In this document: in pieces, positions 11,201 to 17,039 of the stretch
How positions within the stretch are numbered: position 1 is the first letter of the stretch
Layout: each line of letters begins with the position of its first letter
Assembly (NCBI GenBank): GCA_002269645.1
Contig: NIVC01000654.1
Location: 65,009 to 129,008 of the forward strand
Length of the DNA: 64,000 nucleotides
Reading direction: 5' to 3'
Source: Macrostomum lignano
Lineage: Eukaryota
The notes under the pieces: generated by a model
Database searches by the model: none
Told to the model about the DNA's origin: nothing
The model's input: only the letters and a program-made list of their open reading frames with translations
Program-made: the position numbers and the translations under genes

Positions 11201-12266
11201 ATTTTTCAGCCAGTATTCAATACCCTACATGAACGTATACTGCTGTATATTTTAGCAAACTTTTCCGAGAAGCAGTCTTCAAAAACCAAGCTGTCAAAGT
11301 TCACTGCTTTAAATATACAATATATTGTTGTATCATCTGTATCTATGCTTGAGAACTTTGGTTTAACATGACACTGCGGGAACCGATTTTCGTTTGGTTT
11401 TGCAGAATATTCTATGCGCATTGATAACGCGCTGGTACACGTAATTTTACCAAGAAATTGCTTCATTTTTTATAGGATTAAAAATAAAAAACTCTAAGAA
11501 AGAAAGTATTTTTGATCGGGTGTACTTCAAGGTAAAACATTTTGCTCTGACTGAAAAGCTGGAAGAAATTTTTGAAATGCTGTGTCTCACAGGTAGAATC
11601 GCTGAGCTGTCCGGCTATTAAGGCTCATGGGGTATGGCTGAGATGTCAAGGCTGATTAGGGAGTTGCTGAGATGAAAAGGCTCTCGCAGGGATGAGATGA
11701 TGATATTGCTGTCAAAATTAAGCTACGAGTACATGTACGAGCTAGTTTATTCAAGGATAAATCCCTTTGGATGTATACAGCAAGGAACAGCGGCCTATCT
11801 GCTGGCGTCATCAACAACCTCATCAACCTGGGCACCTGCGACTACAACGACATCGACCTCGCCTGGGTCCCTGCCCACTGTGGCATACCCGCTAATGAAG
11901 CCGCGGACCGAACCGCAAATCACGCAGCCCGCCTGCCGCAAACCTCGGCTGCCATTTCGCTCAGTAGTACCGCCAAGGCCGCTATTCGCCTTGATGACAG
12001 CGTCATGCCACCGGCCTACCTAGCCGACTTTTCACACCAACAACAACAACAAACAACAAAGTATATGCGACCCCGCATGCACAGTCACAGTTAGAGCAGG
12101 GCGCGTCAGATGGCGCGCCGCAGAGCCTGGGAGCGAACAAGTTCCAAGTTGGGCCGAGCACACAGCTGCCTGCCAACTCCGAGCCTGTGCTTCCATGCTG
12201 GGCGCCGAGGTCCGACATCGTTTCGGCCTGACGGACTCCTGCTCTGCCAGGATTGCGGGGCACCGG

Positions 12267-12421
12267 AGTAGTAGAGGATAACACAACTCTGCCGCAGGGA
12301 AAGCCACGGAAATTCCGTGGGCCCGGATCAGAAGGGCGCCTATGTGTTTGCATAGCTCAACTCTGCCGCAGGCAAAGCCATGGGAATTCCGTAGACTCCT
12401 AATGAGAGTTCATAGGCACCT
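12267..12421. repeat. Left terminal inverted repeat (155 bp)
   Basis: Reverse complement of 14532-14686 except at position 12410. Contains two copies of AACTCTGCCGCAGGsAAAGCCAyGGrAATTCCGT. Confidence 0.95.
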
Positions 12422-13033
12422 CATGGGGGAATCCGCAAGTATGCACAGAGGCGAGCTAGGGGAATCTCTAGAAATTGTGTTGAACGATTGGCAAATATCA
12501 GCGGTATTTTATTGTATTCAGTATTATACTAATACTTTATTATATAATTTTATCGGTAATAACAAACTTCTGTAAACAAACATAGTGGTAGCCAAGCCTC
12601 TCTCTCTCCCGCTGTCTGGGAGCTGGCGGCGGCGGCGGCTTTGTTGCTGAAAGGAGAGAGTGCTCAGTTATCAGTAGTTTTATTGCCACCCTCGACTGGG
12701 TGGGGTAAAGTTGGCGGCGTATTCAAAAGAATTTAGCGGGGCGTGCGGGAATTTAACAAGGGCTCAATACCTGGATGCGCTGATGAAATCATTGGACATT
12801 GGGTGGCTGACTGTAAACATAGCAAAGCTGAAAACATAGCGGCTATGTTTTTATTAACACAGATTTGGTTGAAGTGGGTATATAAGAGGCTAAATATGTG
12901 CATATGAGAAGTTTAAATTTAAATTTTATTTTAAACTAAATTTCTCATAGATTTTTAAATAATGAATAAATCTCGGTGTCCATCCTACGTGCACGAGGTG
13001 TGCATCAGCTGCAATTCATGTGAGCTCGGTGGG

Positions 13034-13171
13034 TTAAAGCTCCATAACAAAAAAGACAGCTGCATTATAAGTCGCTGGTTGCTTTGCCACGAGTGCCAGA
13101 CAACTGAGCTGGCACTCGAGCCTGAGCCTGAAACTGGCAGGCTGAGCAGGGTTGTAGTAGATCTTTTCCAT
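13034..13171 (-). pseudogene. Short remnant resembling the N-terminus of a Polinton integrase
   Basis: Translates MEKIYYNPAQPASF..., which resembles the remembered (L/M)xxIYYxPxxPxSF start of Polinton integrases. It degenerates afterwards and there is no DDE core. Not database-verified. Confidence 0.45.
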
Positions 13172-13638
13172 TATCAAAATCAAGCTGAATGAAAGCCTGC
13201 CAGTTTCATTCCTGCCAGAAAGAATGAAATTTTTTTAAGTTCTTTTCGCGGTTTGCTCATTGAGCCACTGTTCAATGCTCTTTCAATTTTTATGCCCACC
13301 CTCTTCTCTAACTTGATGCAGCAGCTTTGAGCAAATTGAAAAACTAGCTGGTTGGCCAGGAGCAAATAATTTTTTTCCATTTTCTCAAGAAACAAAAGTC
13401 AACAGTCTAATTTTTTTCTTAAGCACAAGAACAAAGGAAAACAATTTTTTTATGAAAAGAAGCTTTTATATTTTTTAGCGGATAAGAAACAATAAGTTGC
13501 ATGATTTTCTTACATGGAGAGACTTAATTAAGTTTTCTGGATAAATGAGCAATGTTAATTATAGAAATTGTTAAATGAGCCAATTTAAGTATGTCACCAG
13601 TCACCAAAGTTCTTCAAAGCACTTCTTATTCTTCTTCT

Positions 13639-14382
13639 TCACTCCTCATCCTCATTGAGGCGCAGTCTCATGGCGTTCTGCCTGCGCAGCGGATATGGTT
13701 GCTTGCGCTTCCTGACGTTCTCGACCGCAGCTGCTTCAGCCCGGAAGCGATACCAGACTGGGTCCTGCAGCAAATCCGAATCCTGCTTTGGGATAAAGCC
13801 AGCTGCAGCTCTTGTCACCGGTAGAGGCGTTGATGTGACCACTTCATCGTCGATGCGTAGAGTGCTTGATTGGACGCCCTCATCCTCAGTCTTCGCAAGC
13901 CGCATGGTGTCGTCCTTGTTGCTGTTGTCATCATCATCACCGTTTCTCTCGCTCGAAGATCCCGACTCCAGCTCATACACATCAGAAATTTGGCGTGGGG
14001 CAGACAGCTGCTCGTCGATCCATGCAGCCTGCTCCCACAGTTTTCGCCACAGAGCTGGTGCCAAGGCCACAGTGTTTCGCTTCAAAAATTCTTCGCAGCA
14101 ATCTTCTGGAAGCCGTCTTAGCCAGATGATGCCGTTCTTAACCTCAACAAACTTATCAAAACCGAGTTTGATGATCCTCTGTTGCCCGCCTAGGGCCGCC
14201 TTCACGAGAGTTCGCTTCGGTTCTTTCAACTTCTCCCATTGTCGGATGTTGAGGTTAAATCCGGGAACGCCGGGTTTTAAACTTGCTGTGCTGCCATGTC
14301 GATAAAATTTCCGAATCGCAATAAACTGTACTCCTTCATACTCTTGTACTTGAAGTTTGTAGCCTTCTCCAATATCGACCAT
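13639..14382 (-). CDS. PC4/SUB1-like ssDNA-binding protein with two tandem PC4-like domains and an acidic/basic tail, encoded by the element
   Basis: Intact, intronless 247-aa ORF. Domain 1: IGEGYKLQVQEYEGVQFIAIRKFY...PGVPGFNLNIRQWEKLKE. Degenerate domain 2: IKLGFDKFVEVKNGIIWLRR...VALAPALWRKLWEQAAWIDEQL. Confidence 0.8.
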   Translation of the reverse strand: MVDIGEGYKLQVQEYEGVQFIAIRKFYRHGSTASLKPGVPGFNLNIRQWEKLKEPKRTLVKAALGGQQRIIKLGFDKFVEVKNGIIWLRRLPEDCCEEFLKRNTVALAPALWRKLWEQAAWIDEQLSAPRQISDVYELESGSSSERNGDDDDNSNKDDTMRLAKTEDEGVQSSTLRIDDEVVTSTPLPVTRAAAGFIPKQDSDLLQDPVWYRFRAEAAAVENVRKRKQPYPLRRQNAMRLRLNEDEE

Positions 14383-14456
14383 TATTAATTAGTTATTACG
14401 ATGTAACGGAGCGAGAATTTCAAAAATTTTATTATTTGTGAAAACAAATTTTCTGG

Positions 14457-14464
14457 TTTATATA
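14457..14464 (-). promoter_or_regulatory. Candidate TATA box for the PC4-like ORF
   Basis: TATATAAA on the - strand about 75 nt upstream of the ATG at 14382, inside the element. Confidence 0.35.
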
Positions 14465-14531
14465 CAAATATCTCCTATGTAAACACATGCAGCTATGTAT
14501 TCACATTAGGGGGCCTACCCCTATGGAACAC

Positions 14532-14686
14532 AGGTGCCTATGTACTCTCATTAGGAGTCTACGGAATTCCCATGGCTTTGCCTGCGGCAGAGTTGAGCTA
14601 TGCAAACACATAGGCGCCCTTCTGATCCGGGCCCACGGAATTTCCGTGGCTTTCCCTGCGGCAGAGTTGTGTTATCCTCTACTACT
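14532..14686. repeat. Right terminal inverted repeat (155 bp)
   Basis: Reverse complement of 12267-12421. Confidence 0.95.
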
Positions 14687-15267
14687 CACCGGATTCGAGC
14701 CTACACGCGATTTTCAACTGCCCGAGGGGGGACGCGCACCGCATACGCCTGGTCGGCACTGAAGTGGAGCACCTCATCGCCGAGCCGGGCTTCGCTCTTT
14801 CGCTCCTACGGAGCATGGGGCGCTGGCCCTCGTGCGTTTCGGAGCGCTGAAGAAGAAGAATGTGACAGCTAATGTGACAGCTGGAAATCATGCTAAGAAG
14901 ATTTAATACAGTTAAAGAATATGCGCGTGAAAAACCAGCCTTTTTTATGACTAGAAGTGAATATTTTCGAAAATATTATAAACACTCCTCATAGCTATAG
15001 CTGGCAGGACATAAATTAATGGTTAAAATTTAGCCTCTATCCGGTGTGACGTGTTTGCGTTAAATAATTTTGGCTTACCTAAAAATTAAATGTTTTTTAA
15101 TTAACTTTTAATAACATTTTTTGTAAAATGAGCGTTTAAACTTCTAAAAATAACTTTATTGTTGTTTTACTGCTTGTTGTCAATCAACACAAACCGTACA
15201 TTCCAGCATTTTTTCAAGGAAAGAGTGTAATCTAAAAGTTTTCTTCTCTAAGGTAGAGGGAGAAATC

Positions 15268-15491
15268 ATAGGCCCTAGGGTTGTCTAAAGAGTCTCTGCG
15301 CATGTGCTGTAATGTACTTTTTCTAAATATAATTAAATTCGAAGTAAGAAATCCTGGCTATACAAAGTGTATTTTTTAGTATATCAAAATATTTTTTGAA
15401 TTGTAATTATATCAATCAATAGGACTCAAGACCTTATTAATATTAGCTAATAGTTAGTTTCAGTGTCACTCTGTACGTCCCTAGGGCCTAT
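15268..15491. mobile_element. Small AT-rich MITE-like element
   Basis: 13-bp inverted repeat ATAGGCCCTAGGG and CCCTAGGGCCTAT; no TSD confirmed. Confidence 0.35.
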
Positions 15492-17039
15492 CATTTTCGG
15501 AAAAAAATCTCTGATTTTTGTGTACTAAGGGAAGAATAGACGATATGACAAAGGCCTAGAAATATATAATATTTTTCAAAAGTACTTTTTAATTGGTCCT
15601 TTAAGTCTACAATTGCATTTTTCATTTGACCATTTTGGGCTATTAGTGCTGTTAGGTATACATAGTAACCATTCCCTAAGGCAGGGGAAATGAAGTTATT
15701 TATCCTTGATCTATCTAAAAATCCTATCTATATATGCAACACTGACAAATATTGAACTTTTTAATTTTATTTCAATTAGGGCCTAATACTTTTTTAACTT
15801 TTAACTATTCTAGTTAATAGTTCTTTAATCCTTAGTTAAGCTTAGCCTTAGCCTATAACAGATCTAGACTTTCATTTTGGGGGATCAAAGTTTTGGGAAC
15901 CAATATAAATATGAGAGGCACCAATTTTTAAGCTAGGAAATGTTAAAAATTCATGTAGGAAACAAAAAATCAAGCTTAAAGGTGTAAAAATATAAAGAAG
16001 ACAAAAAATCAAGGCTCTTAAAGGCACAAACTTAGGTTTGTTTTTGGGGGAACAATATGTTCTATCAAGATATTTTGGAAAAGGGTGGCCTACTGTGGTC
16101 ATCCCAAGTGGCAGCGTAAGAATGGCAAGGAGGGGGCAGCTGCCCTTGGGTGACCACAGGTCACTGCCTCATGGGGGTATCTATCCCACTATCCCCATGG
16201 CCCTCAAAAAGACCTTAAGAAGGTCTCCCCTTGTTATGCAACTTGCATCAATGATTAAAAATGCATTTTTATAGGAAACTTTATGTTGAACATTCATTTT
16301 AAAAGAAGTGTATCAAAATTTGTTCATAATTCTTTACTTTCTTAAAAGGGGGGATGACCACCTAAGGGGAAATGTGACCACCTAACTATTGCCCCCCCCC
16401 CCTAACAAGAGATACTGCACTGCCATTGGTTACACCTAGTGTCTCCCTCAAAACCTATCCCCTGGCTTAGCTTAGGCCCTCTATCATTGTTAAAATCAAT
16501 TATCTTTCTTTACCAATTCCACCAATAGGTTGCATCTTTTATACAACTAGCTGAGTAAGTATTAATATTAAATAGCATACTATTATTTATATTTTGTCAA
16601 CCCTATAATTAAACCTTAGAATAATCTTTGCATACATAAAACATCAATGCCATCATGAGAACAATGGATTATATATTTATATCAAGGGCAAATTGTAAGA
16701 ATGCATAGTATGTTGGACATTTGTTTGACATATATCTTGAGATTTCATTGAAAGTAATTAGGCCCTATCATTTTGAGTTAACTTAATCTGCTAAGTTTTG
16801 GCTAGTGATGGACTAAATGTGGATTTTTGTGAGTTTCCCAAAACCAAATCCAAATGTACAAAAAATGCTGAATCCAAATAATCTAAATATCTAAATGTGT
16901 TTCCAAATATAAGCAAAAATTAAAGGTAAGGCAAATGGTAAGAATAACTATGACAATTTGAAGTTACAAAAATGCCTAATTATCTAATTAGTAATTTAAG
17001 TAAGCAAATTTTTTTTATTAGAGGCAGGGGGGTTGTGTG

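Follow-up and report, generated by a model that had tools for sequence, protein, structure and literature searches.

The 2,420-bp element described here lies at positions 12267-14686 of a 64,000-nucleotide stretch of Macrostomum lignano DNA (contig NIVC01000654.1, positions 65,009 to 129,008 of the forward strand; the whole stretch is referred to as the window). This element, hereafter the mini, derives by internal deletion from a 16-kb Polinton/Maverick family of the same genome; we consider it probable that a full copy of this family was integrated here and later deleted in place by templated end joining. The mini is probably an ordinary relic, not a mobile satellite. The parent family, the end points of the deletion, the single site, an empty homologous site, templated fillers and substitutions private to the mini were all observed directly.

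The mini starts with AGTAGT and finishes with ACTACT, and is closed by a pair of 155-bp terminal inverted repeats (TIRs; 12267-12421 on the forward strand and 14532-14686 on the reverse strand) that differ by a single mismatch, at TIR position 144 (window 12410); the left TIR, which carries the AGTAGT end, contains an internal 41-bp repeat with a spacing of 74 bp. The target site duplication (TSD) CACCGG is present on both sides, at 12261-12266 and 14687-14692. No polymerase, capsid or whole integrase gene was found within the 2,420 bp, and one open reading frame (ORF) of 247 aa is present (13639-14382, reverse strand), with a predicted tandem PC4-like domain. An earlier note on this DNA, made from the sequence alone, had described these termini, TIRs, TSD, ORF and missing core genes, and all of them were reconfirmed; the element it delimited is real, but its span of 12261-14692 takes in both TSD copies. 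With the coding capacity for polymerase and integrase lost, the element is non-autonomous. In the genome, the terminal 26-mer has 44 matches, as compared to 0 for a reversed control, and is thus no product of chance.

Searching the genome with the 155-bp TIR gave 40 scored matches out of 156 candidates. Eight paired-TIR elements of 15.5-17.1 kb carry the TIR of the mini, together with shorter ones of 7,848, 3,036, 8,724 and 9,661 bp. Exact 6-bp TSDs are seen in C4371, C1297, C3389, C10 and C210; the TSD is imperfect or unclear in C1113, C671, C5229 and C211, and C529 stops at a contig end. Gene content was annotated in one long copy, C671, whose order from the right end is a PC4-like gene, the integrase, a 167-aa ORF, a 427-aa ORF, a protease, an ATPase and a TBP-like gene, with a DNA polymerase in pieces and a 338-aa ORF on the other strand. 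The integrase matches rve (E 2e-12) and carries a chromodomain, while the polymerase pieces match phrog_1907 DNA polymerase (E 2e-11) and, weakly, DNA_pol_B; judging from its context, the polymerase may be of the protein-primed type. The 427-aa capsid-like ORF has an Atlas score of 0.98 to animal clusters that bear a double-jelly-roll label in part, with PF21738 on 24% of their members; it gave no Pfam match, and its single-sequence structure model was unusable, with a predicted local distance difference test (pLDDT) score of 30. The protease match, to the adenovirus-type Peptidase_C5, is weak and below the Pfam cut-off (E 0.0027), and the P-loop matches of the ATPase are likewise weak (E 0.01-0.3; Pox_A32 0.06). 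For the 167-aa ORF, between the integrase and the capsid-like gene, no family match was obtained, and its label as minor capsid is by position only. Taken one by one, the capsid, ATPase and protease calls are weak, but their order and company agree. Overall, the family matches the Polinton/Maverick definition as worded in passages of PMC8097293 and PMC6431247, and the earlier suggestion that the mini descends from a full-size Polinton sharing its TIR is upheld by the gene set of C671, by the eight elements of 15.5-17.1 kb and by the 6-bp TSDs. The TBP-like protein of C671 (L033:8308-8628) is 106 aa long (Pfam TBP, E 2e-11); in PMC8502044, a figure legend mentions TBP-like genes of MELD viruses.

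Compared with the parent copy C4371, the mini consists of bases 1-845, 18 foreign bases and bases 14433-15967 (~1,535 bases), at 97.8-99.8% identity, so that 13,587 of the 15,967 parent bases (85%) are missing. In the window, the left arm covers 12267-13111, with two substitutions relative to the closest copies, and the right arm covers 13130-14686, both in forward orientation. At the inner end of the left arm, the 338-aa left-end ORF of the parent is still represented by its first 50 codons (12962-13111, forward strand), and at that of the right arm the parent integrase by its first 14 (13130-13171, reverse strand). The earlier note did not mention these two stubs; that the PC4-like gene was the only one kept is explained by gene order.

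In place of the missing bases stands an 18-nt filler (13112-13129), which opens with 10 nt copied in inverted form from 13090-13099, with priming on three shared bases; its template match was equalled by 17 of 2,000 shuffled fillers. A second private scar, 27 nt in place of 5 nt, lies 71 bases from the junction (13201-13227), and contains a 15-nt inverted copy of 13129-13143, the right side of the junction, to which none of 1,000 shuffles was as good. This inverted copy takes in the last base of the filler (13129). The same type of filler is found in the 7.8-kb derivative C10 (16 of 2,000 shuffles as good). Inverted-repeat and multi-round templated insertions are described, in passages of PMC2943611, as snap-back products of synthesis-dependent microhomology-mediated end joining (SD-MMEJ), linked to polymerase theta, and SD-MMEJ of this type may well have acted at the mini junction. 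A 15-nt inverted repeat at the start of the integrase was also considered as a parental hairpin setting the break, and was rejected, as it is private to the mini.

The insertion splits a dispersed host repeat of ~280 bp (12151-14845, made up of 12151-12266 and 14687-14845), for which no Rfam match was found. In all 13 loci of this repeat that reach the site, namely the homologous site in C657 and 12 other copies, the hexamer occurs once, and hence the CACCGG pair of the mini is a true duplication. C657 represents the same region with no element inserted. A search of the whole assembly with a 32-base junction pattern, allowing up to 2 mismatches, in this one assembly, matched three times: in the window, in C2162 and in C4151. 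All three matches have a common TSD and common flanks over >10 kb (C2162 and C4151 are 99.97% alike across 6 kb), so that they are duplicates of a single insertion event; the possibility that C2162 and C4151 hold second insertions was rejected, their flanks being identical to those of the window. The insertion is real, and lies on one haplotype. The earlier note had taken the 2.4-kb form to be satellite-like and mobilized in trans, and had proposed looking for further 2.4-kb copies with different 6-bp TSDs. None was found in this assembly, where all three junction matches are at one site, and movement of the 2.4-kb form itself is not supported. Contigs from four sequencing runs carried the letters of the long copies and broke at 13111 and 13130, none of them running across the junction; such contigs drop rare variants, and the absence is uninformative on presence or expression. 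The window contig itself changes haplotype at ~11,900, being of the empty C657 type to the left and of the C2162/C4151 type to the right, which is either an assembly chimera or a crossover. Just left of the insertion, an RNase H fragment was found at 11696-12094 (Pfam E 1.6e-5).

On the favored explanation, a full-length Polinton would have integrated at CACCGG, the 6-bp duplication being made by the parent integrase. A chromosome break inside the integrated copy would have come later, the deletion following integration, and polymerase-theta-type synthesis-dependent microhomology end joining would have dropped 13.6 kb. What remained would include the PC4-like gene, as the gene nearest the right TIR.

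The 247-aa ORF matches Pfam PC4 (E 8e-7, residues 4-54), in agreement with its earlier description as PC4-like. A PC4-domain search of the genome gave 150 scored matches of 277 candidates, and 110 of the 150 were examined, the 40 left out being lower-scoring or partial. The integrase stands directly behind the PC4 gene in 99 of these 110 loci, and AGTAGT termini lie upstream of the gene in most of them. Identity classes near 99, 84, 72 and 57% indicate at least four Polinton families with the same gene order. The PC4 gene is spared because it is the nearest to the right TIR, as central deletions that end between this gene and the integrase leave it whole. In the C414 derivative, the deletion runs into the PC4 gene. 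In the other 11 loci integrase is lacking; within the DNA examined, a TIR closing the element was found only for the mini (entered twice) and for an element in C356. The latter is a second PC4-only mini (L138:3753-5086), 1,334 bp long, with 126-bp TIRs, GTTAGC/ATTAGC as its TSD and an ORF of 254 aa that is whole; it derives from a sister Polinton family and arose independently. Its junction is single-copy (1 full-length match of 40 scored, from 89 candidates).

The structure of the PC4 protein was modeled from 8 aligned sequences, with a mean pLDDT of 61. The predicted model has two ββββα repeats in residues 1-129, where most 10-residue blocks have a pLDDT of 73-91, followed by an acidic disordered linker and a basic C-terminal helix. 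The best structural match is Pur-alpha 3k44 (Z 11.1, root-mean-square deviation (rmsd) 3.5, 118 aligned), followed by MRP1/2, Whirly and PC4; with the same model, no Foldseek match reached E 0.001. Repeat 1 matches dimeric PC4 (4usg) at E 1e-4, and repeat 2 aligns to 6ycs with 27% identity (Z 6.1, rmsd 2.0, 56 aligned). The protein is thus predicted to adopt a single-chain tandem PC4/Pur-alpha-type fold that binds single-stranded DNA (ssDNA). At the sequence level it looks like a tandem duplication of PC4 in its own right, carried by a mobile element. Adenoviruses and phi29 encode their own ssDNA-binding proteins for strand displacement, and the PC4-like protein of the parent is, as modeled, likely an ssDNA-binding protein for strand-displacement replication. 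A literature search, which did not cover supplements, Repbase entries and many papers, returned no paper giving Polintons a PC4-like protein, and PC4 does not occur in the main text of PMC8502044 or PMC11071308. Relatives of the gene were found in 0 of 591 candidate stretches of metagenome contigs and 0 of 169 of viral contigs, and a protein search gave 5 homologues of 987 candidates, without gene context.

The changes private to the mini amount to seven substitutions in ~2,380 bases plus a 1-base insertion, as compared with 7 copies for the left arm and 8 for the right (C211 was left out). All seven substitutions are present in C2162, and six in C4151, where the seventh is obscured by a 1-base gap. 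C4371, C671, C1113 and C10 differ from the left arm solely at its two private sites. Judged by sequence, the mini is young, at ~0.3% from its nearest relatives, although the newest long copies are younger; its description as non-autonomous and young is borne out. The ORF contains three of the private changes, two of which replace residues (L55P and S191R) while the third is silent. Across the 110 loci, residue 55, which sits in the first PC4 helix, is Leu in 64, Val in 42, Ser in 2 and Pro in 2, both of the latter being the mini. Leu55Pro fits decay of the PC4 gene of the mini, which is probably under way. Differences between left and right TIR were also observed in common among copies at different sites, at position 88 (C4371, C1297 and C10) and at position 125 (C671 and C1113), and hence replication does not always make the two TIRs of a copy identical. 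The use of the TIR mismatch as an age clock was rejected, as such differences are inherited across sites in the long copies.

A number of points weigh against the favored explanation. Had the deletion preceded integration and occurred while an excised copy was replicating, the TSD would be the same and the site likewise single, and the polymerase of the element could yield similar fillers by template switching. Moreover, a second PC4-only mini with a whole ORF arose independently, and in the sister family a 13.7-kb element with a 2.36-kb capsid-gene deletion and an identical junction is present at two sites (L134, L135 and L203), with the TSDs AGCGCT in C3033 and CACTCT in C201 and C2466. This element seems to have moved after its deletion, although gene conversion could also have spread the deletion; as it keeps its integrase, it does not demonstrate help in trans. 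Polintons lacking polB are still mobile in insects according to passages of 10.1101/2025.02.07.637071. In addition, only one assembly was searched, the three ORF changes (two replacing, one silent) are too few for a selection test, and the capsid, ATPase and protease assignments of the parent are weak by Pfam.

The best-supported alternative is that the deletion occurred off the chromosome, while an excised Polinton was being replicated, and that the short genome was integrated once by an integrase acting in trans, as a one-off defective genome. Both TIRs and the subterminal regions are whole and the TSD is exact, as this course would have it; template switching by the element polymerase might have made the fillers, and the deleted structure of the sister family at two sites shows that derivatives can integrate after deletion. 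Nevertheless, the mini junction has no second site, and the mover of 13.7 kb retains its integrase. The second scar, of the same kind and including the last filler base, fits repeated repair by the host, a weak pointer given that it concerns one base. On balance, we find this alternative unlikely, and deletion in place by host end joining is preferred.

A broader proposal is that host Polintons shed minimal genomes of TIRs plus PC4 that behave as defective-interfering or satellite genomes. These would rely on the polymerase and integrase of a helper for copying and integration, with PC4 acting on displaced strands during protein-primed replication; we give this proposal little credence. Trans-mobilization of deleted Polintons is plausible in principle and is not new, but no sign of it was seen in the mini. 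Another idea is that of a satellite-like lineage of mini-Polintons, repeatedly mobilized in trans, with PC4 under selection, e.g., for aiding or disturbing helper replication. Two independent minis with TIRs and PC4 only, of 2,420 bp and 1,334 bp, both with whole ORFs, would suit such a lineage, and a name of non-autonomous style, Polinton-1N1_DR, is in print (in a passage of PMC9341505). However, each mini junction occurs at one site, the terminal position of PC4 spares it from central deletions while the C414 deletion cuts into it, and the mini has a proline in a helix at a position where 106 of 110 loci carry an aliphatic residue, so that we regard this lineage as very improbable. That the mini is an assembly artefact, a collapsed full-length copy, is scarcely credible: the haplotype switch near 11,900 and the lack of a junction-spanning contig in the four runs, whose contigs drop rare variants, could be read that way, but the identical junction is found in three contigs, has 18 templated, non-parental bases, offers no repeat on which a collapse could have occurred, and is linked to the second scar and to seven substitutions absent from the other copies compared.

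Deletion products of many sizes, with differing end points, were found in the family of the mini. C210 (L054:342-3377) holds a 3,036-bp derivative with the TSD CAAGTC, a PC4 gene and a split integrase; its left end is that of the mini's family, its right part is 76-82% alike, and it looks like a recombinant of two families. In C1450, C2895 and C3956 (L055-L057, L229), elements of 8.7-9.7 kb have the left half only and a second TIR closing them; the flank of the second TIR is an inverted copy of the first flank, with no TSD, and these elements resemble fold-back-like products. Inside the TIR of another Polinton, C12 (L139:5050-5384) carries a unit of 335 bp that has AGTAGTAG...CTACTACT as its ends and GAAATT as its TSD. 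This unit resembles the ends of elements of ~17.7-25 kb (L246/L247, L254/L255), whose TIRs are units of 265-300 bp with inverted ends, and which have 6-bp TSDs. Its candidacy as a multi-copy miniature inverted-repeat transposable element (MITE) was rejected, as it has one full-length match at 100% and the next at 68%.

Since deleted Polintons are common, the mini matters little as a system. The locus does show how Polintons decay, since alleles with and without the insertion, parents of nearly the same sequence and templated scars that can still be read are all at hand, and if trans-mobilization exists, the mini delimits what a helper must recognize. The gene left in it directs attention to a terminal gene conserved in at least four Polinton families of the genome, predicted to bind ssDNA and a testable candidate, and this tandem PC4 gene is a more interesting by-product than the element.

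Compared with Polintons/Mavericks (polintoviruses, adintoviruses), the parent is alike in its (AGT)2 ends, TIRs, 6-bp TSD, size of ~16 kb, polymerase and rve integrase, as well as in the weakly matched ATPase and protease genes and the putative capsid gene, and differs in its terminal tandem-PC4 gene and its TBP-like gene; the mini differs in having lost all core genes. The letter N in names like Polinton-1N1_DR marks non-autonomous families, and internally deleted P/Ds elements are comparable to the mini in having both ends of the partner and no enzymes. Likewise, the mini resembles non-autonomous families (Polinton-1N1_DR and those of P/Ds/MITE type) in possessing both ends of an autonomous partner and no enzymes. 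Such families are multi-site, whereas the structure of the mini is at one site: the shared ends were found, but in the one assembly searched its internal structure did not recur at a second site with another TSD. Non-autonomous and deleted Polintons are already known. Passages of PMC8097293 give 96% of vertebrate Mavericks as defective, and Polinton remnants of four sizes appear for C. elegans in part of 10.1101/2024.01.15.575659. Like these defective and deleted Polintons, the mini is a gutted copy that shares its genome with whole relatives; it differs in its very clean ends, young age, whole accessory ORF and readable repair scar. Finally, its protein shares the predicted ββββα-linker-ββββα topology with type I single-chain PC4-like domains (Pur-alpha repeats I-II, Whirly and MRP1/2, as set out in passages of PMC7549692), and differs from them in that each of its repeats is nearer to dimeric PC4 in sequence.

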